NCBI GenBank assembly: GCA_937944855.1
Contig: CALFAY010000048.1
Coordinates: 29,446 to 93,445, forward strand
DNA length: 64,000 nt
Direction of reading: 5' to 3'
Origin: an uncultured Planctomycetota bacterium
GTDB lineage: Bacteria; Planctomycetota; Planctomycetia; Gemmatales; HRBIN36
Under the pieces are notes generated by a model. The model had not been told where the DNA came from and did no database searches. It saw only the letters and a program-made list of their open reading frames with translations. Positions 2,816 to 13,950 of the stretch are shown piece by piece. Position 1 is the stretch's first letter; each line of letters starts with the position of its first letter. Both the position numbers and the translations under genes were made by a program.

Positions 2816-2975
2816 GAAGATGCCGTCAAGCCTGCGGTTCTCTTCGCGGGCCGAACCCGGAAGGCAATCCGGCGATCTCAGCGGATTCCCTCTCCCCTCC
2901 GATTCCGCGGTTTGCTACGCTGATGCGGATCTTTGGAGTCCTTCGTCCTGCGACTGCCCCCTGGACGGAAAAGCC

Positions 2976-4322
2976 ATGTTGCACGATGCCATTCGGTGCT
3001 ACCACGACCTGCTGACCGACCCGTTGGCAGCCGATTCGCAGGCTCAACTGGATCAACAACAGCAGACTCGCGGGTTATTCTTCGGAGAAAGGCCGATCTG
3101 CACCGTCCTTCGACCGCGCTTCTTAACCAGTGCTCAGTTTCGCTTTCTCGAACAGCGTACCCGGGTCTTGTGCTCGGCATTTCGCACCGTGCAGCGGCTC
3201 GCCGAAGACGATGCCGCCTTTCGCCGTCAGTTCGGCTTGACGGAGGTAGAGGAAGCGCTGTTCCAGAAACATCCCGGTTTCCGCTGTCCGTATCCGACCT
3301 CCCGTCTGGATGCCTTTTTTGTGTCCGAACGGGAACTGCGATTCACGGAGTACAACACCGAGACCCCGGCGGGAGCGGCGTACACCGATGTTCTCGCCGA
3401 GGTCTTTCTCGGCCTGCCCATCGTGGCCGAGTTCGCCAAGCACTACGCCGTCCGGCCCGTCCCCGTCAGGCATACCATTCTTCAGGTGCTCCTGGACGCT
3501 TATCGGCAGTGGCGCGGGACCAGTGAGCGGCCCAACATCGCCATACTCGATTGGCGGGAAGTACCGACCTACAACGAGTTCGTCCTGTTCTACGATTACT
3601 TCCGCGGTCAGGGCCTGGATTGTGTGATTGCCGACCCGAGAGAAGTCGAATACCGCGACGGCAAACTTTGGGCTGACGATTTCCGAATTGATCTGATCTA
3701 CAAACGGGTCCTCATCGGTGAACTCCTGGAACGCGGCGGGCTGGAACACCCGGTCGTTCGAGCGGTTCGGGATGGAGCCGTGTGCATGGTCAATTCCTTC
3801 CGCTGCAAACCGCTCTACAAGAAGGCCAGCTTCGCCGTTCTGACCGACGAAGCCAACGCCTCCTTGTTCGACGAAGAGCAGAGGCGAGCCATCGCCGAAC
3901 ACATTCCCTGGACGCGACGCGTTGAGGAACGCAAGACCGAGTACCGCGGTCAAACCATTGATCTGGTCCCCTTCGTGGTTCAGAATCGGGACCGCCTGGT
4001 TTTGAAGCCAAACGACGAGTACGGCGGCAAAGGCGTCGTGCTGGGCTGGACGACGGATTCCAGTGCCTGGGATCAGGCCGTGATGACCGCGCTTCGAGAA
4101 TCCTATGTCGTCCAGGAACGCATCACGCTTCCCTCCGAACCGTTCCCTCGGCTGGTGGGAGACCGGGTTCAGATCAGCGAATGCCTGCTCGATACCGATC
4201 CGTATGTCAGTTATGGCCTGTTCATGGACGGCTGCATGACGCGGATTAGCACGGCTGACTTGTTAAACGTCACCGCCGGCGGCGGTTCGACCGTGCCGAC
4301 GTTTCTCATCGAACCGCGCTGA
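2976..4322 (+). CDS. Circularly permuted type-2 ATP-grasp-like / glutathionylspermidine-synthase-like amidoligase
   Basis: Long ORF. The track start of 2820 gives an implausible Ser/Pro/Cys-rich leader. ATG 2976 (MLHDAIRCYHDLL) is the likely start. 'DRLVLKPNDEYGGKGVVLGW' and the ~450-aa layout resemble CP_ATPgrasp_2-type ligases. The family call is by eye only. Confidence 0.6.
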   Translation: MLHDAIRCYHDLLTDPLAADSQAQLDQQQQTRGLFFGERPICTVLRPRFLTSAQFRFLEQRTRVLCSAFRTVQRLAEDDAAFRRQFGLTEVEEALFQKHPGFRCPYPTSRLDAFFVSERELRFTEYNTETPAGAAYTDVLAEVFLGLPIVAEFAKHYAVRPVPVRHTILQVLLDAYRQWRGTSERPNIAILDWREVPTYNEFVLFYDYFRGQGLDCVIADPREVEYRDGKLWADDFRIDLIYKRVLIGELLERGGLEHPVVRAVRDGAVCMVNSFRCKPLYKKASFAVLTDEANASLFDEEQRRAIAEHIPWTRRVEERKTEYRGQTIDLVPFVVQNRDRLVLKPNDEYGGKGVVLGWTTDSSAWDQAVMTALRESYVVQERITLPSEPFPRLVGDRVQISECLLDTDPYVSYGLFMDGCMTRISTADLLNVTAGGGSTVPTFLIEPR

Positions 4323-4366
4323 TGTAGCGGCAAAGCCGCTCAGCCGCGGCGGGAAAGGAACCGACG

Positions 4367-5476
4367 ATGAATCCTCCTTCGCTCACCATCGGCATCGAAG
4401 AAGAGTACCAGATTATCGACCCGCAGACGCGAGAGTTGCGTTCCTACATCACGCAAATCCTAGAGGACGGAAATCTCGTCTTGCGTGAGCAGATCAAGCC
4501 GGAGTTGCACCAGTCGATTGTCGAAGTGGGCACGGCGGTCTGCCGAACGCCGGCAGAGGCCAGGGGCGAACTGGTCCGGCTCCGCAAGAGCATCATCGAC
4601 CTTGCTGCCCGGCACGGGCTGAAGATCGCAGCGGCAGGCACGCACCCGTTCTCCTCGTGGCTGACCCAGGAAATCACGCCGCTGGAACGCTACCTGGGCG
4701 TCAAGAAAGATATGCAGGACTTGGCTCAGCAGTTGCTTATTTTTGGCACCCACGTCCACATCGGCATCGAGGACCGCGAGTTTCTCATCGACGCCATGAA
4801 CGTCGCGCGTTACCTGTTGCCGCATTTGTTGTGCTTGTCCACCAGCTCGCCGTTTTGGATGGGACGCAATACCGGGCTGAAATCGTACCGAAGCATCATC
4901 TTCCGCCACTTTCCGCGAAGCGGCATCCCTCCGGAACTGAGTTCCTGGGCGGAGTTCAGCACGTTTGTCGAGACCCTGGTCAAAACCCATTGCATTCCCG
5001 ACGGCACCAAAATCTGGTGGGATCTGCGACCCAACTGGAAGTACCCGACTCTGGAATTCCGTATCTGCGATGTCTGCACGCGGATCGACGAGGCCATCTG
5101 CATTGCTGCTTTGTGTCAGGCAATCATCGCCAAGTTGTGGAAGCTCCGTCGGGACAACATGACTTTCCGGGTCTATACGAGTCGGCTCATTGAAGAGAAC
5201 AAATGGCGGGCGGTGCGTTTCGGCATCGACGGGAAATTGCTCGACCTGGGCAAACAGCTGGAATTGCCAGCCCGCGACCTGATCCGGGAGATGGTGGACT
5301 GGTTCGTCGGCGACGTGGTGGACGAATTGGGCAGCCGGAAGGAGGTCGAGTACGCTTATCGCATCTTGGAAGAGGGGACGAGTGCGGATCGACAATTGCG
5401 GGTCTATCGGGAAACCGGCGATTTGAAAGCCGTCGTAGACCATCTGGTCGCCGAAACCGCCCAGGGTCTCGATTGA
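4367..5476 (+). CDS. Carboxylate-amine ligase, YbdK / glutamate-cysteine ligase family 2 (GCS2)
   Basis: N-terminal '[13 protein letters not shown]', '[10 protein letters not shown]', '[10 protein letters not shown]', '[20 protein letters not shown]' and '[19 protein letters not shown]' are collinear with E. coli YbdK motifs (GIELEMQ, GGGTHPF, FGQHVHVG, SAASPY, HWDIRPSPHFGTVEVRVMD). An RBS-like 'GGAAAGGAA' lies upstream. Confidence 0.9.
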
Positions 5477-5513: not shown

Positions 5514-6374
5514 GTGATCATCCGGCACACGCACTGGGGATGGATCGTTTTTTGCATTCTGGCAGGGGTCGTCTGCACCGCAATCTGGTGGTTGGGACCA
5601 CGCCACGACCCCGAGGGCTTGACCGGCGGCAGCACGTTCGGCTTGTGGTGCGGCATCCTGGGCAGCGCCTGCATGGTTTTCGCCGGCCTGTTGCCATTGC
5701 TGCGACGGCGAGCGGTGCTTCTGGAGGCTCGATTGCCCCCGCGGGAATGGTGGCTTCGAGGTCACATCTGGCTCGGCCTTCTGAGTGTGCTCTTCATCGG
5801 CTTCCACAGCGGCTTTCGGTTTCACGGCACTTTAGTGAGCGCGCTTACGGCCATTTACCTGATCGTGGTCGTCAGCGGAATCGTGGGACTTTTGGTGCAA
5901 ACCGTGCTGCCGCATCGACTGACGGTGGCATCACGGCATGAAATCCCGCCGGGACAGATCGAAGCGGTATGTGCTGCTTGGCGGGCGGAGTGCGATGCGC
6001 TGGTGGACGAGTTGTGCGGTCCGCGTCCCGCCTTCGCTTCGGAACCAGCCTCCAGCCCCGTTTTGCTGCGGCGTTTCTACGAAGAAGAGGTTCGGGTGGG
6101 GTTGTGGGAGACGCCAATCCGTTGGCCTCTGCGAAGTGACGCCCGCATCCGGGAGGCGTTCGAGCGAATGCGGAGACAGGCGGAAATCGTTGCCAAATCT
6201 CGGGCCGATGATGTTCTGAACAGATTGGAAACTGTGTGTCGGGAACGCTTGGACCTGCTCAGGCAGCAGGAACGCTACTTCTGGCTGCATGCCTGGTTGC
6301 CGGTCCACGTCGGACTCTCAGCCGCGCTGCTCATTCTGGGAACCGCTCATGTTGTCACGGCCCTGTGGTACTGA
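5514..6374 (+). CDS. Polytopic membrane protein with intramembrane histidines (possible heme-b / ferric-reductase-like electron carrier)
   Basis: GTG start. There are about 5 hydrophobic helices (WGWIVFCILAGVVCTAIWWL, FGLWCGILGSACMVFAGLL, HIWLGLLSVLFIGFHSGF, LVSALTAIYLIVVVSGIVGLLV, WLHAWLPVHVGLSAALLILGTAHVV) with His inside the helices, and a ~130-aa soluble insert. The gene ends 9 nt before the cytochrome gene. The function is inferred only. Confidence 0.5.
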   Translation: MIIRHTHWGWIVFCILAGVVCTAIWWLGPRHDPEGLTGGSTFGLWCGILGSACMVFAGLLPLLRRRAVLLEARLPPREWWLRGHIWLGLLSVLFIGFHSGFRFHGTLVSALTAIYLIVVVSGIVGLLVQTVLPHRLTVASRHEIPPGQIEAVCAAWRAECDALVDELCGPRPAFASEPASSPVLLRRFYEEEVRVGLWETPIRWPLRSDARIREAFERMRRQAEIVAKSRADDVLNRLETVCRERLDLLRQQERYFWLHAWLPVHVGLSAALLILGTAHVVTALWY

Positions 6375-6383
6375 CAGGGTCCG

Positions 6384-7820
6384 GTGCAAGGAACGGAACG
6401 GACCATGCTTCCGGAGATGGAACAACCAGGGACGCCATACCTGCGACCCGAGCGCTTGACTGCCTGGTACGCTCTCGATTATTTCCGCCGACCGTCCTGG
6501 CGCCAGCGTTGGAAATGGTGGTTGACCGGCTTGGCGGCCGGGCTTTGTGTTATCTGGCTGGCAGCCGTCTTGCTGCGAAGCGACGAAAGTGCTTTCGCTT
6601 CCGGTCCGATCAGTCTGGTTCATGCGCAGGAACAAGTGGCTTGCGGCCAGTGTCACACCGGATGGTTTCGTCCCGCTGCCCGGCTGTTATTCCCCGAAGC
6701 CCGCTCGGTCCACGACGCCGACTGCATCGCCTGTCATTCCTCCCAGGGGCGCAGCCCATACCATGTCGCAGGAGCGGAGGATGTGGCCTGTGCCGAATGC
6801 CATCGGGAGCATCGCGGCCGCCTGCTCCTGACGCACATGCCCGACGCCTATTGCACTGCCTGCCATGCCGGATTGAAACGAACCGATTCGTCGCCGCCGC
6901 GGTTGGCTAACGTTTCGGGGTTCATCCTCGACCATCCGCCTTTCCAGTCTTTGGCAACCGGGGACCCAGGCCAGCTTCGATTCAATCACGCAGTCCACTG
7001 CGACCCTTTGGGTGTCCTGACACCATCCGGAACACCGAAAGTTCTCCAATGCGACTTCTGCCATCAGCCCGCACACGGCGGCTGCTACCTCAGCCTGCCC
7101 CGCTACCAGACATGCCAGGAATGCCATCCAATCACGGTCTCATTCCCGGAACTGCTCCCGTTCGCAGACAAAAGCGAGGCCGTCAGAAATCTGCTTCAGC
7201 ATTCTTTGCCGCACGAGGAACCCTCCCGTGTGCGGAGCGAGCTGCGCCGCCGGCTTACGCATCTGGTTGAACAACTCCCTCAGGTCCTGTTGGTGGAGCG
7301 AGAGGAGAATCATGCCCCGCCATTTATTCCTGGCGAATCTTCGGCGGAACGACCTGGGCTTCAGGACTGGATTGAAGCCCAGATGCGGCGAGCGGAGCAT
7401 CACCTGTTTGTCGGTGGCGGAGGTTGCCGTCTGTGTCATACGCCTGTGGCCAACGTGACGGCGGAGCACGTGCGTGGGAATCTGCCGACCTACGCTCCGA
7501 CGAATCTCAAACCTGTCTGGATGCCTTTATCCACTTTCAGCCACGCCGTCGAGGGTCATCGTCACCTGGATTGCAGCGCCTGCCACCCAGCATTACAAAG
7601 TCGTTACGCTTCCGATGTGCTTCTTCCCGAAATTGAATCGTGTCGCGCTTGTCACCGTCCAGGCGGCTCCGCCCGGCATGATTGCGGCGAATGCCATCGC
7701 TATCATCAGGCCGTTGAGCGCCGGGGATCCTGCAAGGCCGCCAAGACGAAAACCAAGGCCGGGGACATGGTCCCCGGCGGCGAATCGCAGCAACGTCCAG
7801 AAACGGGGACCAGCCCATGA
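6384..7820 (+). CDS. Membrane-anchored decaheme c-type cytochrome
   Basis: Ten CxxCH motifs: CGQCH, CIACH, CAECH, CTACH, CDFCH, CQECH, CRLCH, CSACH, CRACH, CGECH. The N-terminal hydrophobic anchor is 'WKWWLTGLAAGLCVIWLAAVLL'. The start is GTG 6384 or ATG 6405. Confidence 0.9.
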   Translation: MQGTERTMLPEMEQPGTPYLRPERLTAWYALDYFRRPSWRQRWKWWLTGLAAGLCVIWLAAVLLRSDESAFASGPISLVHAQEQVACGQCHTGWFRPAARLLFPEARSVHDADCIACHSSQGRSPYHVAGAEDVACAECHREHRGRLLLTHMPDAYCTACHAGLKRTDSSPPRLANVSGFILDHPPFQSLATGDPGQLRFNHAVHCDPLGVLTPSGTPKVLQCDFCHQPAHGGCYLSLPRYQTCQECHPITVSFPELLPFADKSEAVRNLLQHSLPHEEPSRVRSELRRRLTHLVEQLPQVLLVEREENHAPPFIPGESSAERPGLQDWIEAQMRRAEHHLFVGGGGCRLCHTPVANVTAEHVRGNLPTYAPTNLKPVWMPLSTFSHAVEGHRHLDCSACHPALQSRYASDVLLPEIESCRACHRPGGSARHDCGECHRYHQAVERRGSCKAAKTKTKAGDMVPGGESQQRPETGTSP

Positions 7821-10800
7821 ATCCGCTACGCTTCGCCAGCGCCGCTCATGACGGCGAGGTGCTTCACAAACTGCCGCCTCGATCCGGGGACATTGAGATT
7901 GCTGCGGAATCTTTGACGAAACTATTGGGACTTTTTCGCAACATCAAAGCGAATCTGGGATTGAAGACCAATCCAGATGCCATCCGGTTGCGACATTATG
8001 ATCCGGGAGACATCATTTGCTCGCGAGGTGAACCGGGCAACAGTGCCTTCTACCTTCTGCCCGCCGAAGACTTGGCCGCTCTCATCGCCTACCTCTCTCA
8101 GCACAAGCCGGGCCAACAGTCCGATAACGGGCACGACCACAGCCAATCGGTACTGACAACGCTGGAGCGGGTTCGTCAGGCTTCCGAAAACCGCAAACGA
8201 CTTGCCGCAGAAGCCCAGCGACTTTATGCGGAATTGGAGTCGCTGGAATCCGCGTTGGCCGAGAGCGGCGACACTCAGCGAGCCGCACTTTACGCCCGCT
8301 GTCGCCTGATAGGGCCGATCACGAAGCTGGTCAAGGCCGAACTGCTCCGGGATCAAGAACCGCAATTAGCCGCTCTTCTCGGCCGACTGGCTGAAGTCGA
8401 GGAGCAGCGGCGAGTGGCGGTGGCGCGCGTTCCGACGGCCCCCCTGGCGGTCCGTCGTCGCCGGTCGTTTTGGCAACGCCTTCTGGGCGGTTGGATCGCT
8501 TCCGATGCCGAATCCGAACCGGCTCCCCTGTCGATTCCCAACGACGGCCCGGCGGAAATTGATTACGACAGCGGAGAAGCCTCGCTCTACGAAGACGAAG
8601 TTTTAGGCGAGATGGCGTGCATCGACCGGCAGCCACGCACAGCCACCGTCGAAGTGGTCAAGGAATGTTTCGTCCTCGAAATGCTGCGTCCAATTCTCGA
8701 CAACATGCGGAAGGACCCTGCCTACCGCAAGAAACTGGACGACAAGTACCGGGAACGGGTTCTGGAATTGCACCTGCGTGCTTTGCCTCTGTTCAAAGAC
8801 CTCGACGCCTCTCTCATCGCCCGGGTGCGTCGGGAAGCCGACCTGGAGCCTTACGAGGCTGGTACGCTCATCTGCGACCAGTATGAGCGCTCCGACGCCT
8901 TGTACCTGATTCGCAGCGGCACCGTCAAGGTGATGCAAAACGTCTCCGCACTAGTGAGTCAGGCCGACGTGTCCGACTGGAATGCCGTGCGGTGCTTGAA
9001 CCCGGATTGCGATGGTCCGTTCCTCTTGGCTCGGCAGCGGCTGTGGGAACGGTTACCATCCGACCTGGTGGAATCAGTTCGGAGTGCGGTGCCACTGGAC
9101 GCCAAGACTCGTCAGCAGGTGCTCGACGCAGTTAACGACCTGATCCGCGATCCGCTGCTGCTCCGCGATCCGGCCGTTCGTTCGGCATGTGAAACGGCAG
9201 ATGTCCACGGCCAAACGTGGCGTCAGCTCGTCAAGGCAGAGTACGCGAAACCTGAAACCTTAGCCGGCCTGAACCGGGTGCTTCTGGCCGCCGCTCTGCT
9301 TGGCAAACCGCCAACTTGGCGGCTGACTCCTGCTCAGCCATCTCCGATCCTTCCTCCACCACTTGGGCCAGGAGACATCACGGATTGGAAGACGCTGGTC
9401 GGCGATCTGGAGCCATCCACTCGCAAAGCGGACCATCCAGCGACCGCGGCAGCACGCTGGCTCTGGGAACAGTTGCCGGTTGAGGTGCAAAACCGGATTC
9501 GCCTGGCGAAGACGGGCCAGAGTGTCAACCCGGAAGACGCGGCCAGGATCGTCGATGCACTCAATGCCATAGCTGAGAAGTCCTTCCTACTCCTGGAGCC
9601 GGAGTTTCAAGACCTCATCGGCAGCGATGTCAACCTGCAAGCCCTGCTCATGCTGCTGCGGCACGATGGCCAGAAATGGACCGACCATGCCTGGAGGCGA
9701 TTCAGCCGCCTTCGCAATCGACTCCTCCTGCACGCCCTGTATCCGGGGTGGTTGGGAGCGGAATACCGATCGCCAGGACAACCCCTGGTCCTCGCCTATC
9801 GGGGCCGGGGGGATTTCATCGGAGAAATCGGTCTGATGCTCGATGAGCCGCGCAGCGCGACCTGTGTCGCCTACAACCATCCGGACAACGATCCGAATCG
9901 GGAAGTCGGCCCCGTACAAATCGTTCGCATCAGCAAGGAGCTTTTTGAGACCCTGCGGGACAAATCGCCAACCTTTCGCCGCAGGATCGAAGAAACTGTC
10001 CAGGAGCGGTTGGCAAACACTCGCCGGAGTCAGAGGGAAGCCGCTCGGGCTGCCCGGCAGCGGACGACGCCTCTGGACGCAGTCGCCGAGCAACTCGGCA
10101 TCTCGCAAGGCCAACGGCTCATGCTTATCGACCTCGACCGTTGCGTTCGTTGCGACGAATGCGTCCGGGCCTGCGTAGCCGCTCACGACGACGGCGTCAG
10201 TCGGTTATTCCTGGACGGCCCCCGCTTTCAGCAGCAGGTCGGCGAGAGCATTCGCACTTTCCTGGCTCCGACGACTTGTCGTTCCTGCGTCGATCCAGTG
10301 TGCATGATTCCCTGTCCGGTCGGTTCCATCGTCCGCGGCGACCAAGGGCAGATCCTCATTCGCGATTGGTGCATCGGCTGCGAGAAGTGCGCCAAGAATT
10401 GCCCCTACGGAGCGATTCAGATGCACCCGGCCGGCCTCATTCCGGCTCGCTCTTCCGCTTGGCGGCTCCTTCCCGCGTGGAAAGTTCCCGCCCAGCAGCT
10501 TGATTGGACAACCGCGGAATACCGAGACCGACACTGGATGCCCATCCAGACTCCGGTTCTGTACGACCGTGAATTCCTCGCCCGGCTTGGCCGCATCCCT
10601 GACGGGCCTAAGCCCGCTGCCGTCTGCTTCCGCCATCAGTTTTCCGTGGACGTCAGCCGACATCTCGGTGCCGAGGCCAAGTTCCGCCTCGTGATCTCGC
10701 CCTTGCGCGCAGGTACGCAATTGTGGATCAACGGAAAGGAAGTCACTGATCTGGAAGCCAAGAAAGGTGAAGGGGTTCGGGAATTGGAACTAGACCGGGG

Positions 10801-11083
10801 CGAGAACCTGACAAGCGAGCCGGGCAAGAAACCGACCAAGGCACTGCGAATCCTCGGACAGGGTCAGAATGCCATCGGCGTTCGCCTGCCCCTGCCCGAA
10901 TTCCTGGGAGGCACGCTCTTCGACCTGAGAATCGTCGTGTTCGAGGGCACGGTCATCGAACTGAAAGCCGTCGTGTGCGATCTGTGCAATCAGCCGCCCG
11001 ACGGCCTGACGGCGTGCGTTCGGGCTTGCCCTCACGAGGCGACCCGCCGCTTCGATGCCCGCAATGGAGTGATCGTCTGGTGA
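7817..11083 (+). CDS. Cyclic-nucleotide-binding-domain protein fused to an NrfC/DmsB-type four-cluster [4Fe-4S] ferredoxin
   Basis: ATGA start/stop overlap with the cytochrome gene. There are two cNMP phosphate-binding-cassette-like motifs (GEMACIDRQPRTATV, GEIGLMLDEPRSATC). There are four Cys clusters: CVRCDECVRAC, CRSCVDPVCMIPCP, CIGCEKCAKNCP and CDLCNQPPDGLTACVRACP. I see no signal or Tat motif. Confidence 0.85.
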   Translation: MNPLRFASAAHDGEVLHKLPPRSGDIEIAAESLTKLLGLFRNIKANLGLKTNPDAIRLRHYDPGDIICSRGEPGNSAFYLLPAEDLAALIAYLSQHKPGQQSDNGHDHSQSVLTTLERVRQASENRKRLAAEAQRLYAELESLESALAESGDTQRAALYARCRLIGPITKLVKAELLRDQEPQLAALLGRLAEVEEQRRVAVARVPTAPLAVRRRRSFWQRLLGGWIASDAESEPAPLSIPNDGPAEIDYDSGEASLYEDEVLGEMACIDRQPRTATVEVVKECFVLEMLRPILDNMRKDPAYRKKLDDKYRERVLELHLRALPLFKDLDASLIARVRREADLEPYEAGTLICDQYERSDALYLIRSGTVKVMQNVSALVSQADVSDWNAVRCLNPDCDGPFLLARQRLWERLPSDLVESVRSAVPLDAKTRQQVLDAVNDLIRDPLLLRDPAVRSACETADVHGQTWRQLVKAEYAKPETLAGLNRVLLAAALLGKPPTWRLTPAQPSPILPPPLGPGDITDWKTLVGDLEPSTRKADHPATAAARWLWEQLPVEVQNRIRLAKTGQSVNPEDAARIVDALNAIAEKSFLLLEPEFQDLIGSDVNLQALLMLLRHDGQKWTDHAWRRFSRLRNRLLLHALYPGWLGAEYRSPGQPLVLAYRGRGDFIGEIGLMLDEPRSATCVAYNHPDNDPNREVGPVQIVRISKELFETLRDKSPTFRRRIEETVQERLANTRRSQREAARAARQRTTPLDAVAEQLGISQGQRLMLIDLDRCVRCDECVRACVAAHDDGVSRLFLDGPRFQQQVGESIRTFLAPTTCRSCVDPVCMIPCPVGSIVRGDQGQILIRDWCIGCEKCAKNCPYGAIQMHPAGLIPARSSAWRLLPAWKVPAQQLDWTTAEYRDRHWMPIQTPVLYDREFLARLGRIPDGPKPAAVCFRHQFSVDVSRHLGAEAKFRLVISPLRAGTQLWINGKEVTDLEAKKGEGVRELELDRGENLTSEPGKKPTKALRILGQGQNAIGVRLPLPEFLGGTLFDLRIVVFEGTVIELKAVVCDLCNQPPDGLTACVRACPHEATRRFDARNGVIVW

Positions 11084-11131
11084 AATGCGGATAATCGGGT
11101 ACCCACTTCCGCCTAGCCACGCCGAAGCCGA

Positions 11132-13762
11132 TCAGTCAGGCAAGTTTTCGTCGGGCACCGGAACGGAGGGATCGCCGGCTTCGATTCGCTTGAGCTGCTC
11201 ACGATAATAGCGGCGCTTGGGTGCCAGTTCGACGCACTTCTTGATCAGGTCCAAGGCTTCGTCCTTGCGACCCAGTTGAAAGCAAACTTCCGCCAGGGTA
11301 TCGAGGTAGGAGACATTGTTTGGGTCAAGCCCTGTGGCGACCTGAGCATGGGCCAGGGCCTTCGACAATTCGCGACGGCAAACGGCACACAGCCAGGCCG
11401 CCGAGTTGTGGTGCGTCGCGCTTTGCGGATAGTCTCGGCAGACCTCCTCCTGAACCTGCAAAGCAGCGTGAAATAAGGCATCCGCTTCGGCCCGGCGTCC
11501 GAGCCGATCCAGGCCCGGCACGATGTCGGTGGCGATGTCGATGGCCCCGGGAGCGGCTGCCAGGGCTTGACGGGCTTCGCGCACGGCATCGTCCGCCTTG
11601 CCCTCTTGGAGATAGGCGAGCGCGCGATGATAGTGGATGATGCGTGGGACCAGGAGATACGACTTCACATCCACCATGCTGATGCTGGGCCGCAGACAAG
11701 ACAGCAGAAAACGCTCGTAATCCGCCGCTGCCTGGAGATGCTCCCGCCAGGCCAGGAAGTCGTTGGCCCGGTGACGAACGGCTTCATCGACGAACCACGA
11801 ATTGAGCTGTCCAATACGCAGAAAAAGTTCCCGCTCCTTTCGGACTGCATCGAACAGTTTGCGTTTCTGCAAAAATTCGACGAGGAATCCGTAGCGGTTG
11901 TCATCGACGGCCAGCGGAGCCAGACTGGCCAGTTGCATCAAGCGTTCGCCTTCTTCCTTGTGACCGGCTTGACTGAGAGCATGGCCCTGGAGATACAGAA
12001 GGCCCGGAGCGTTGCGATCTCTCTTCCAAGCCTCACCGTAGCACTTGGCCGCCTCGCTCCACTGCTGCCGCTCGGCGTGCCAATCCGCCAGGGCGGTCAA
12101 AGTGGTGCTTCCGGGGTGGATGGCCACGGCCCGCCGCAGGCAGTCGAAAGCGCGTGTCTCATCTTTAGATGCCTGGAAAGTTTGGGCCAAGGTCAGGAGC
12201 ATTGAAGCGCGCTCCTCGGCGGGGCGCTGCTGCATCGAGGCTTCCAAGGCGGGAGCCAGAGACGCCACCAGTTCGGCGTCAGGCCTCGGACCGACCAGTC
12301 GGTCGAGCATTTTCAGTAAGTCCACCGGATCATTTGCTGGCGATCGACTCCGCAAGAATCGCCACCAGGTTTGGGCGTCCGATCCGTTGTCCGGGTACAG
12401 GCAGTAGAACAGCCAGGTCAAATTGTGTTCCCGCTCCGACAGACGCAAAATCAAGGCCGCATGGCGACGGCGCAGGTCGAGCAACCCGAGCTTCCCTTCC
12501 GTCTCGAGAAGTGGTTCATAGCGGTTGGCTTGCCGGTTGTCGCTGACGTTGACGAGTTCGCGACCCGTTTCCTCGAACAACCGCAGCGCTTTATCTTTTT
12601 CGCCAAGACGATACAAGGCTTCCGCCTGAGCAACGCGGAGCGGAATCGAAGGGGGCAGCCGGGAGGCCAGCTCGAAGGCTTCCCGATAACGAGTTTGAGC
12701 TACCAGGAGGTTAAATGCCCGGAGAGCGTTCTTGGATTTGCTTAAAAGGGCGATGGCTTCGTCGAACCTGCCGTTAACCAGCAAAGCCTCGACGCTGAAC
12801 CAACGGTCGCCGTCCTCGACCCCGGCGTTAGAGGCGAATCGGCGGATGTCGTCGAGGGCCTTTTCGAACGCGGCCTGATTCCCCGCAAGACGATGGTACG
12901 CGGCACGGAAGCCGAGCGTCTCGATGTCGCCCGAAACCTTGGCCCGTTCGTCGGCCCGCTCCGCCAGCCTCTTCCAGTCACCGCGTTCGTGCAGCAAGGC
13001 TTCAATCAGATATTCATCTCCCACAGCCTCCGCGACCATGAGGGCCTTGGTGAGATCACCCGCTGCCCGGTACAGGTACGTCAATACCGCTGCCGAATGG
13101 CGATCCCCCTGACGCTCCCAGCGCGCTTCGTATTCGCGGATCTTGTCGTCGATGCTTCCTCGAAGGAGCACGAAGGCGGCGAAATTGCGGATAGCTTGTT
13201 CGTTGTCCTCCTGAGCACACAATTCGATCATTTGTTCGGCCAGGCCCAGGTTGCCCTCCTGGATCGTGGCCGGTAGAGCGCGCGGAATCTCAACGGCCAC
13301 CCGGTTCCAGAACCATTCCTTGACAGCGCGATTCCGCTCGGCGGAGGCGATCTTGAGCAGGACTTCATAGCCAAGCGAACCGCGTCGCAGCAGACCTTCG
13401 ATGGCCTGTTCCCGCAGATTCGGATCTCCTGAGCGGTACTGGTCGATGAGACGAACGACCTCCTCCGGCGTGTCGGGGTAGATTCCCCAGCGGAAGCGGT
13501 CGAGGATCTGTTGGGCGCGGCGGACCACCTCGGCATCCGAACTTTGCGCGGCTCGCTCCAGGGCGGTCTCCGCGGCTCGACCGGCCTTCCAAAGCAGCTG
13601 CGAGGCCTGTTCCCGGACCTTGAAGCTGGGATGACCGAGATTGCGGATCGCCCCGGCGATTTCGGCCTCGCTGACCGATTCCGCCTGGCCAACCGCCAAG
13701 CTTTTGGGAAACAGCCCAAGCACGGCCACGCCGATCAACAACAGTCCTGGCAGCATCTTCAT
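11132..13762 (-). CDS. Secreted TPR/HEAT-repeat protein
   Basis: Long ORF. The likely start is ATG 13762 (MKMLPGLLLIGVAVLGLFPKSLAVGQA, a signal peptide) rather than the track start 13873. It has many TPR-like A/L/Y-rich repeats (e.g. 'ALAYLQEGKADDAVREARQALAAAP', 'LAEVCFQLGRKDEALDLIKKCVELAP'). Confidence 0.75.
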   Translation of the reverse strand: MKMLPGLLLIGVAVLGLFPKSLAVGQAESVSEAEIAGAIRNLGHPSFKVREQASQLLWKAGRAAETALERAAQSSDAEVVRRAQQILDRFRWGIYPDTPEEVVRLIDQYRSGDPNLREQAIEGLLRRGSLGYEVLLKIASAERNRAVKEWFWNRVAVEIPRALPATIQEGNLGLAEQMIELCAQEDNEQAIRNFAAFVLLRGSIDDKIREYEARWERQGDRHSAAVLTYLYRAAGDLTKALMVAEAVGDEYLIEALLHERGDWKRLAERADERAKVSGDIETLGFRAAYHRLAGNQAAFEKALDDIRRFASNAGVEDGDRWFSVEALLVNGRFDEAIALLSKSKNALRAFNLLVAQTRYREAFELASRLPPSIPLRVAQAEALYRLGEKDKALRLFEETGRELVNVSDNRQANRYEPLLETEGKLGLLDLRRRHAALILRLSEREHNLTWLFYCLYPDNGSDAQTWWRFLRSRSPANDPVDLLKMLDRLVGPRPDAELVASLAPALEASMQQRPAEERASMLLTLAQTFQASKDETRAFDCLRRAVAIHPGSTTLTALADWHAERQQWSEAAKCYGEAWKRDRNAPGLLYLQGHALSQAGHKEEGERLMQLASLAPLAVDDNRYGFLVEFLQKRKLFDAVRKERELFLRIGQLNSWFVDEAVRHRANDFLAWREHLQAAADYERFLLSCLRPSISMVDVKSYLLVPRIIHYHRALAYLQEGKADDAVREARQALAAAPGAIDIATDIVPGLDRLGRRAEADALFHAALQVQEEVCRDYPQSATHHNSAAWLCAVCRRELSKALAHAQVATGLDPNNVSYLDTLAEVCFQLGRKDEALDLIKKCVELAPKRRYYREQLKRIEAGDPSVPVPDENLPD

Positions 13763-13950
13763 GCCTTGTAGTGTAACCGAGACAAGCGGTTCTTGACACG
13801 CCATTTCCTCCGGACCGAGGCGTCGAGACGGACTATTCAGGCAGCAAGCCCCTACGATATGCTTAGAAGCCATGCCAGAGTCTCCAGCGACTTCCGCTGA
13901 TCGAGAGTCCGGACAAGGGCAACAATGAGCACACGGGAAATCGGGGTGAA

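Follow-up and report, generated by a model that had tools for sequence, protein, structure and literature searches.

A three-gene planctomycete locus homologous to the ptdF-ptdG-ptdE core: a putative transmembrane electron conduit with cyclic-nucleotide-binding domains

The closest described counterpart of the locus considered here is the ptdABCDEFG operon (penta/tetra/deca-heme), which was named from bioinformatics in a 2024 preprint and whose function, according to its authors, "remains completely unknown" (bioRxiv 10.1101/2023.11.21.568154). The operon was described as encoding a pentaheme cytochrome with a beta-sandwich (PtdA), the porin PtdB, an oxidoreductase that binds FAD/NAD(P) (PtdC), a tetraheme cytochrome (PtdD), a protein with cyclic-nucleotide-binding (CNB) domains and 4Fe-4S clusters, two of which were stated (PtdE), a ferric-reductase-like transmembrane (TM) protein (PtdF) and a periplasmic decaheme cytochrome (PtdG); its carriers were found among Alpha- and Gammaproteobacteria, Nitrospirales and Planctomycetes of marine and saline habitats (bioRxiv 10.1101/2023.11.21.568154). 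Here we analyse three adjacent open reading frames (ORFs), ORF1 to ORF3, in a 64,000-nucleotide (nt) stretch of DNA, hereafter the window, from an uncultured Planctomycetota bacterium of the order Gemmatales (assembly GCA_937944855.1, contig CALFAY010000048.1, positions 29,446 to 93,445). By homology, they constitute the ptdF-ptdG-ptdE core of such an operon. We propose, with a probability of roughly 60%, that this trio is the conserved core of the Ptd system and acts as an outward transmembrane electron conduit that is modulated by a cyclic nucleoside monophosphate (cNMP). In a literature search the ptd name appeared in no later paper, and a search for a characterised respiratory subunit combining CNB domains with iron-sulfur (Fe-S) clusters turned up the ptd preprint alone.

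Parts of this design also occur in better known respiratory systems. In NarH-NarI and FdnH-FdnI, as proposed for the trio, a four-cluster subunit of the NrfC/DmsB superfamily is seated on a small membrane subunit with two b hemes, one close to either face of the membrane. Nar has its Fe-S subunit in the cytoplasm and a membrane subunit of five TM helices. Residues 815-868 of ORF3 align to NarH. The trio differs from Nar and Fdn in that ORF1 gives no NarI or FdnI signal, no molybdopterin catalytic subunit is present, a decaheme cytochrome c serves as the periplasmic partner, and CNB domains are carried by the Fe-S subunit. In sulfate reducers, Tmc, Hmc and DsrMKJOP form transmembrane electron conduits out of a periplasmic multiheme cytochrome c, a cytochrome b in the membrane and an Fe-S protein in the cytoplasm, a combination resembling that proposed for the trio; in these complexes, however, the Fe-S subunit resembles HdrD (CCG domains) rather than NrfC/DmsB, the cytochrome b is of the NarI type and CNB domains are absent. 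Scans with Pfam and NCBIfam showed no sequence kinship of the trio with them beyond generic Fe-S and heme motifs.

The ptdF-ptdG-ptdE core and its conservation

All three genes lie on the forward strand. According to the ORF list of the window, ORF1 (5514-6374, +) encodes a PtdF-like inner-membrane protein of 286 amino acids (aa), ORF2 (6384-7820, +) a PtdG-like decaheme cytochrome c of 478 aa, and ORF3 (7817-11083, +) a long-form PtdE-like cytoplasmic protein of 1088 aa. The ORF coordinates place a 4-nt ATGA overlap between ORF2 and ORF3 at 7817-7820; this overlap and the packing of the three ORFs are exactly as claimed in a preliminary description of the locus that was made from the sequence. 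The 9-nt gap between ORF1 and ORF2 (6374/6384) that was also given there holds if ORF2 starts at the GTG at 6384. It does not hold for the public gene call on an identical contig, in which ORF2 starts from an ATG 21 nt downstream (6405), yielding a protein of 471 aa and a gap of 30 nt. The alignment of ORF2 with its homolog at locus L001 begins at residue 2 of the 478-aa form. Under either start, the three genes are tightly packed.

The comparison with the ptd operon was made by proxy, using metagenomic operons of like composition in place of the sequences of Table S7 of the preprint. A metagenome scan with an alignment of short-form PtdE recovered operons of exact ptd composition (L165 and L163), in which a tetraheme cytochrome, a CNB-Fe-S protein (557 aa), a 271-aa TM protein, a decaheme and a pentaheme cytochrome are followed by a 513-aa porin-like protein (signal peptide, C-terminal Phe, no Pfam match) and finally by a protein with FAD_binding_6, NAD_binding_1 (also the ferric-reductase NAD_binding_6) and Fer2 domains. 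At L145 the order was pentaheme, porin-like protein, cytochrome, E, F, G. When the ORF1 family (alignment A2) was compared by hhalign with a PtdF-like set (L165, L163, L145, L143, L085 and L150), the probability was 99.9% (E 3.9e-35) over 259 columns, and two conserved pairs of histidines were aligned. ORF3 matched the L165 PtdE in BLASTP with E values of 3e-26 (Fe-S part) and 1e-13 (first CNB domain, CNB-A), and ORF2 matched the L165 decaheme cytochrome with an E value of 9e-9, colinear from the membrane anchor through hemes 1-6. Since its members are homologous to the PtdF, PtdE and decaheme proteins of ptd-type operons, the trio is, by homology, a ptdF-ptdG-ptdE core. The idea in the preliminary description that this architecture was without precedent was thereby superseded, as PtdE, PtdF and PtdG of the same designs are already named in the preprint (bioRxiv 10.1101/2023.11.21.568154).

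The window shares with the ptd operon three adjacent architectures, and Planctomycetes are among the listed carriers of the latter. It differs in holding F-G-E only, in a PtdE of 1088 aa, twice the usual length (~480-560 aa), whose additional parts are two helical inserts and one beta-rich, possibly sandwich-like insert, and in four Cys motifs in this protein against the two clusters stated for the operon. PtdA, PtdB, PtdC and PtdD were not found in the 64 kb: tblastn of the L165 PtdA and PtdD and of the L040 tetraheme cytochrome against the window matched nothing, and the L165 PtdB and PtdC gave no match at E<=0.01. No ORF of the window other than ORF2 contains a CxxCH motif, and homologs of class III cyclases, tetraheme or pentaheme cytochromes, porin-like proteins and FNR-like flavoproteins were likewise not detected in it. 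Beside the trio, the ORF list and a Pfam scan revealed no gene for a Mo, NiFe or flavin subunit, and neither an NrfD/DmsC-type membrane subunit nor a catalytic subunit is encoded there. The earlier statement that no catalytic or donor subunit is encoded is therefore correct for the window; it does not extend to relatives, which carry tetraheme, pentaheme and porin-like proteins and an FNR-like FAD/NAD(P)/[2Fe-2S] protein.

A scan with the ORF3-family alignment over one genome per species returned at least 591 relatives, and the best 80 of these were nearly all from Planctomycetota (Gemmatales, Isosphaerales, Pirellulales, Planctomycetales and Phycisphaerae). Co-conservation was assessed in 44 Planctomycetota loci with at least 3 kb on both flanks of the ORF3 homolog. 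By tblastn, an ORF1 homolog was present beside the ORF3 homolog in 32 of these loci and homologs of both ORF1 and ORF2 in 30, with ORF3 identities in trio loci down to ~33%. The gene order F-G-E, as in the window, was observed in Gemmatales, Isosphaeraceae and Singulisphaera, the order E-F-(insert)-G, followed by further cytochromes, in Planctomycetales and others, and a divergent order (G<F< >E) in Schlesneria and marine Planctomycetaceae. That the genes have stayed adjacent despite rearrangement, at identities of 33-40%, is strong evidence that the trio is a functional unit, and the co-conservation that the preliminary description had called for is thus strongly borne out, in three gene orders. 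A tetraheme cytochrome of ~500 aa with a cytochrome-c554-like N-terminal domain accompanied 26 of the 44 loci. Planctomycete carriers included metagenome-assembled genomes (MAGs) whose titles refer to freshwater lakes, groundwater and other non-marine sources.

Some loci had additional cytochromes close to the core. In Singulisphaera sp. Ch08 (L006; NZ_CP155447.1, 3253966-3269289), a complete genome that is not labelled as a MAG, tetraheme, pentaheme, PtdF, PtdG and long PtdE genes form one co-directional cluster. In several short-form loci, a giant second cytochrome of ~1,200 aa with 9-10 CxxCH motifs lies a few kb from the E-F-G core (L098, 1190-4903, -; L127, 1235-4945, -; L143, 4564-8364, +; L159, 5114-8656, +).

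Predicted properties of the three proteins

ORF1 has five hydrophobic helices and, between TM4 and TM5, a helical domain of ~125 aa on the cytoplasmic side. The AlphaFold2 (AF2) model (mean predicted local distance difference test, pLDDT, 88) consists of five long helices, with four N-terminal TM helices, the helical domain and a very long last helix that ends as TM5. Mean numbers of Lys plus Arg in the loops of 36 sequences were 4.8 for TM2-TM3, 0.6 for TM1-TM2 and 0.7 for TM3-TM4; owing to these charges, the positive-inside rule predicts an N-in/C-out topology in which the helical domain, like the N-terminus, is cytoplasmic. Five histidines, H84, H98, H259, H265 and H279, were invariant in the 36 sequences, and they are the histidines within helices that the preliminary description had noted in a protein of about five TM helices. 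Two pairs stand out, H84-x13-H98 in TM3 (5763-5807, +), proposed as axial ligands of a cytoplasmic-side and a periplasmic-side heme b, and H265-x13-H279 in TM5 (6306-6350, +), proposed as the second axial ligands of both hemes. Both pairs were invariant in the 36 family members and in distant PtdF-like proteins. Given the predicted topology, H84 and H265 would be close to the cytoplasmic side of the membrane and H98 and H279 close to its periplasmic side. An H-x13-H spacing is that of cytochrome b and of the NOX/FRE ferric-reductase domains. Because 13 residues intervene in both pairs, ORF1 is a predicted diheme cytochrome b with two stacked b hemes between TM3 and TM5.

The family to which ORF1 belongs is large, with 3,882 representatives at 50% clustering in a profile search; among the 120 matches listed in a word-index search, no homolog bore a Pfam domain or a name. 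ORF1 itself matched DUF4405 below threshold (E 0.058), and sub-threshold matches to DUF4405 and Ferric_reduct were obtained for 15 and 8 of the 36 family members, respectively. The family profile matched PsaA (E 0.04) and STEAP2 (E 0.26) weakly in the PDB; in the latter match, H98 lies opposite the His of an MVH sequence within a predicted STEAP2 TM segment, and we take this His to be the heme ligand of that protein. These two profile matches serve as a hint only. Altogether, the signal for kinship with ferric reductases and DUF4405 proteins is weak but consistent. Identity of ORF1 with NarI or NrfD was rejected, as neither gave a signal in the family scans. In the ferric-reductase superfamily (NOX, FRE, MsrQ/YedZ, STEAP) and in DUF4405 proteins, as in ORF1, His pairs with a 13-residue spacing occur in TM3 and TM5, and the NAD(P)H/FAD donor module of ferric reductases would have its counterpart in the separate PtdC protein of full ptd operons. 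ORF1 differs from ferric reductases in that all matches are sub-threshold, five rather than six TM helices are predicted, a domain of ~125 aa precedes the last helix, and Foldseek returned no significant match to solved NOX, STEAP or MsrQ structures; in the Ptd system, moreover, an Fe-S protein stands between flavoprotein and hemes. Fusions of PtdF with PtdE or PtdG were sought among long PtdF homologs, and only low-complexity and Zn-ribbon inserts were found.

ORF2 contains exactly ten CxxCH motifs, at residues 87, 114, 136, 157, 223, 244, 348, 397, 420 and 434, and an N-terminal membrane anchor read from the sequence, WWLTGLAAGLCVIWLAAVLL (approximately residues 45-64; 6516-6575, +); the anchor and the ten motifs that had been reported for it were thus both recovered in the translation. 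An Arg-rich stretch, RRPSWRQRWK, precedes the anchor helix, and this position of the positive charges suggests that the N-terminus is cytoplasmic and that the heme domain faces the periplasm. Matches to Pfam Cytochrome_C7 and Cytochrom_c3_2 were obtained. Ten CxxCH motifs were present in 39 of 40 homologs, and 9 further His residues were invariant. Since these would suffice for bis-His ligation of nearly all hemes, the conservation pattern points to mostly bis-His hemes and to an electron wire rather than a catalytic site. A chance origin of the motifs is excluded by the occurrence of ten of them within 478 aa together with the conservation data. Membership of ORF2 in the MtrA/DmsE, QrcA or c7 nanowire groups was rejected, with scores far below cut-off (22 bits for TIGR03508, the MtrA/DmsE decaheme model, against a cut-off of 192.2). 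MtrA/DmsE and the porin-cytochrome conduits resemble PtdG in their ten mostly bis-His c hemes, and full ptd operons include a porin-like partner; ORF2 differs in being anchored in the inner membrane, in its length (478 vs. ~330 aa) and in a helical segment that carries no heme and separates heme 6 from heme 7.

ORF3 matched the Pfam cNMP_binding family (PF00027) with 72.8 bits (cut-off 27.5) and several Fer4 families, with Fer4_11 at 26.1 against a cut-off of 26.2. Its phosphate-binding cassettes are GEMACIDRQPRTAT in CNB-A (residues 264-277; 8606-8647, +), with G264, E265, P273, R274, A276 and T277 invariant, and GEIGLMLDEPRSAT in CNB-B (residues 669-682; 9821-9862, +), with G669, E670, R679, A681 and T682 invariant. 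Invariance of the cassettes was scored in the close-family alignment A1, and that of the Cys residues in A1 and A3. Cys motifs I-III of the Fe-S part (10115-10441, +) comprise C776/779/782/786, C821/824/829/833 and C852/855/858/862, all 12 of them invariant; motif IV (C1054/C1057/C1067/C1071-P; 10976-11032, +), a fourth [4Fe-4S] site, is also invariant and aligns with the L165 PtdE. ORF3 thereby shows the NrfC/DmsB/HydN pattern (CxxCxxCxxxC, CxxCx4CxxxCP, CxxCxxCxxxCP, CxxCxnCxxxCP) with 16 Cys, all invariant. Residues 767-875 align to HydN, DmsB, ArrB, DsrO, NrfC and PsrB-type models, all below equivalog cut-offs; the best NCBIfam equivalog was HydN, with 57.7 bits against a cut-off of 260. 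The N-terminus bears neither a recognisable twin-arginine motif nor a signal sequence; from this absence and the CNB domains, ORF3 is assigned to the cytoplasm. The features previously listed for this protein, namely its 1088 aa, the absence of a signal or Tat motif, two cNMP cassettes and four NrfC/DmsB-style Cys clusters, were all found.

The AF2 model of ORF3 (pLDDT 72.5), predicted from 13 sequences, to which a second protein search added only P0277, contains two beta-rolls, each broken by a long helical insert (~170 and ~280 aa); its Fe-S region is cofactor-dependent, of low confidence and poorly resolved. The top Foldseek matches were the tandem CNB-A/B domains of PKG and PKA-R (E ~4e-6, probability 1.00). 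Like ORF3, these best structural matches have two consecutive CNB domains with canonical cassettes; ORF3 differs in that the output is a fused Fe-S wire instead of a kinase and in the long helical insert in each beta-roll. Between motifs III and IV lies a beta-rich insert of ~165 aa (10454-10951, +; AF2 strands at residues 882-1041), which is missing from short-form PtdE (P0009-P0011, P0277). It matched BetaGal_ABD2 weakly (E 0.089) and is possibly a galactose-binding-like sandwich. The insert carries a "...FRL...WxNG...L..G.N...V" pattern like that of galactose-binding-like domains, and a similar segment is located at the N-terminus of the homolog P0008 instead.

Insert modules are shared between the cytoplasmic inserts of the PtdE homolog P0008 (A1 columns ~560-830), from one organism, and of the PtdF homologs P0140 and P0179, from others, namely a Zn-ribbon-like CPxC...CPxC and tandem "(D/E)KIA(Q/L/M)MRA" repeats. 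These common modules are hints that the PtdE and PtdF inserts may reside in one compartment and have a joint function.

Cyclic-nucleotide signatures and genomic surroundings

In a regular-expression census of 84 planctomycete-type PtdE homologs, two canonical cassettes were present in 49 and one in 28. Genes for GAF-class III cyclases adjoin homologs at L002, L008, L009, L010, L020, L116 and L125; six of these calls were confirmed with Pfam and that at L010 was made through a tblastn match to the L002 cyclase, which also has a match inside the L119 cluster. Cyclase-bearing loci thus number at least seven and come from different clades, and the trio of the cyclase-adjacent L002 shares the gene order of the window. 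Binding of a cNMP by ORF3 is likely on the basis of its cassettes. Because both CNB domains here keep the full cNMP-binding signature, PtdE probably binds cyclic AMP (cAMP) or cyclic GMP (cGMP), with an effect on the entry of electrons or the assembly of the complex. Gating of electron flow by a cNMP is a plausible but putative and purely inferential step, and the specific proposal that the tandem CNB domains, on binding cAMP or cGMP, switch flow on or off between the Fe-S wire, the diheme b subunit and the decaheme cytochrome is put forward tentatively, as possible rather than probable.

A large soil clade of short-form PtdE (480-560 aa; L088-L156, from metagenomes) carries a cassette of the form "GE(L/M)SALSRYPVSA", in which Val replaces the phosphate-binding Arg. 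At several loci with this Val cassette, a gene for a GAF(-FHA) class III cyclase and an HbpS-like (PF03928) gene are found immediately upstream of, and co-directional with, the genes for tetraheme, E, F and G (for example L116, 46-3292, and L125, 4591-7989).

CNB domains were also observed on other redox proteins. At L004, a type-2 NADH dehydrogenase (Pyr_redox_2 + NDH2_C) is fused to a cNMP_binding domain (9907-11571, -), and its neighbours (7327-9867 and 12016-13854) are a short PtdE paralog and a GGDEF/Guanylate_cyc gene; it represents a second respiratory enzyme of Planctomycetota that bears a CNB domain. In the context of P0012 (JGI 3300047160), an 854-aa Fe-S protein with Fer2_4, many Fer4 and CNB domains directly follows a NuoF-like gene (Complex1_51K, NADH_4Fe-4S).

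In the window, the same-strand 5' neighbours of the trio encode a BNR/Ycf48-like protein, a circularly permuted ATP-grasp protein and a GCS2 ligase, and the 3' neighbour, on the opposite strand, encodes a TPR protein. The CP_ATPgrasp_2 gene (sub-threshold) and the GCS2/YbdK-type carboxylate-amine ligase gene (192.7 bits) occupy 2820-5476 (+), ending 37 nt before ORF1. Synteny with the flanking genes was common to close relatives only (L001, L087) and absent from more distant loci, so they were treated as unrelated neighbours; a functional tie of the trio to the upstream ATP-grasp/GCS2 genes was rejected for the same reason, and these genes probably form a separate operon. A promoter and terminator scan around the trio gave a signal no better than that in shuffled sequence.

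Proposed electron path, alternatives and significance

In the model that we infer, which comprises complex formation, heme b binding, a direction of flow and the binding and effect of a cNMP, PtdE would reside in the cytoplasm with a four-[4Fe-4S] wire behind two PKA-R-like CNB domains and dock on the cytoplasmic face of PtdF, possibly at its helical domain. PtdF would hold one b heme close to each face of the membrane, both of them between TM3 and TM5, and PtdG, anchored by one helix, would extend ten mostly bis-His c hemes into the periplasm. Electrons would pass from a cytoplasmic reductant through the Fe-S clusters, the cytoplasmic-side heme b, the periplasmic-side heme b and the decaheme cytochrome to periplasmic or extracellular acceptors. 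The layout proposed in the preliminary description, with Fe-S/CNB protein in the cytoplasm, a His-bearing relay in the membrane and decaheme cytochrome in the periplasm, agrees with the positive-inside rule, the AF2 model and the conservation of ligands. The direction is most likely outward, because the sole cytoplasmic partner observed in complete operons is an FNR-type NAD(P)H/FAD/[2Fe-2S] protein, because these operons add tetraheme, pentaheme and porin-like proteins on the outer side, and because the weak homology of PtdF leans to electron-exporting proteins of the ferric-reductase type. Overall, the system would correspond to a NOX/FRE enzyme whose parts are separate proteins, with an Fe-S wire inserted among them and a multiheme extension on the outer side.

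The same complex could in principle run inward, with the decaheme cytochrome taking electrons from periplasmic donors, for example Fe(II), reduced shuttles or hydroxylamine/NO-type substrates via partner cytochromes, and passing them through the b hemes to the cytoplasmic Fe-S clusters as NarI feeds NarH. The NarH-NarI arrangement, a four-cluster protein on a diheme b subunit in which flow is inward, and the window without a gene for a cytoplasmic donor favour this direction, as does the report of ptd genes in nitrite oxidisers and of a link between PtdA and COG3303 (NrfA family) (bioRxiv 10.1101/2023.11.21.568154). We nevertheless consider it unlikely, since no cytoplasmic catalytic acceptor subunit was present at any locus examined, the FNR-like partner is normally a donor, and the proteins to which the weak ORF1 signal leans are electron exporters. 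It is quite unlikely that ORF1 is a quinol/quinone cytochrome b resembling CymA/NapC, CbcL/ImcH or NarI, which would connect the quinone pool to the decaheme cytochrome and leave ORF3 an accessory or regulatory role: the conserved four-cluster wire with its 16 invariant Cys is hard to reconcile with a non-redox accessory, no quinone-site motif and no NrfD, NapC or NarI family signal was found in ORF1, and full operons contain the FNR-like partner. Such a reading would be in line with the fact that most inner-membrane entries to multiheme wires are quinol dehydrogenases, and the lack of an encoded cytoplasmic donor in the window would fit it as well.

Two further alternatives concern the CNB domains. 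They may be structural and offer a scaffold for docking on PtdF, or they may act as sensors of a nucleoside or some other metabolite, with no cyclic-nucleotide control. The cassette Arg is missing from 53 of 62 short-form PtdE (GE[LM]SALSRYPVSA), marine ptd-type PtdE keep only one canonical cassette, both domains of ORF3 hold very large inserts, and Foldseek also matches the trypanosome PKA-R, a binder of nucleosides rather than cAMP. Against these observations stand the canonical and invariant cassettes (G-E, P-R-[ST]-A-[ST]) of the window protein and its close family, the canonical cassettes in the planctomycete-type homologs counted above, and the recurrence of class III cyclase genes beside homologs, and this explanation appears doubtful to us. 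A redox-sensing signalling device that integrates the periplasmic redox state with cNMP in the cytoplasm, instead of a bioenergetic conduit, is very improbable. Regulatory-type tandem CNB domains fused to redox cofactors, and cyclase, FHA and GAF genes near some loci, would suit a sensor, yet none of the three proteins has an output domain (HTH, kinase, GGDEF or other), ten c hemes, two b hemes and four clusters far exceed what a sensor needs, and the association with further cytochromes, porin-like and FNR-like proteins indicates bulk electron flow.

Several observations weigh against the outward, cNMP-modulated conduit that we prefer. Heme b binding by ORF1 is predicted from the spacing of its histidines only; the protein had no match in Pfam or NCBIfam at E<=0.01, and Foldseek of its model against the PDB gave nothing significant, the best match being the TorS sensor domain (E 0.27), of unrelated fold. 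The loss of the cassette Arg in most short-form PtdE, comprising a large soil clade, indicates that cNMP gating is not general to the family, and together with the single cassette of the marine proteins suggests that cNMP control is lineage-specific at best. In 12 of the 44 loci, mostly with short proteins of the Pirellulales type, neither ORF1 nor ORF2 homologs were located near the ORF3 homolog. The window itself lacks genes for a PtdC-like cytoplasmic donor, a tetraheme or pentaheme partner, a porin and a cyclase. Finally, the family is known from sequence-based description only.

Beyond the preprint, the present analysis identifies E-F-G as a conserved core that is very widespread in Planctomycetota, including non-marine MAGs, and adds four cluster motifs in PtdE, two invariant H-x13-H pairs in PtdF, and, by comparison of sequences, a clade-dependent cNMP signature with recurring cyclase genes nearby. 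The core is represented by at least 591 PtdE matches in species-representative genomes and ~3,900 PtdF clusters at 50% identity, and the window shows that it can stand alone as a three-gene unit. The model is also sharper than that of the preprint, with four clusters, two b hemes, ten c hemes and a cytoplasmic head with two intact cNMP sites. If it is right, the trio would belong to none of the CymA/NapC, CbcL/ImcH, Nar, Tmc/Hmc and NOX types but represent an inner-membrane electron gate of a new class, and it may be the first respiratory wire under direct cyclic-nucleotide control. To our knowledge, second-messenger gating has not been demonstrated for any respiratory complex. If true, cNMP gating would constitute post-translational second-messenger control of respiratory electron export, and it may be widespread across Planctomycetota, in which CNB domains are also borne by an NDH-2 and a NuoG-like protein. 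The model would thus be relevant to the exchange of electrons with metals, nitrogen oxides or shuttles, in Planctomycetota as well as in many marine and soil bacteria.

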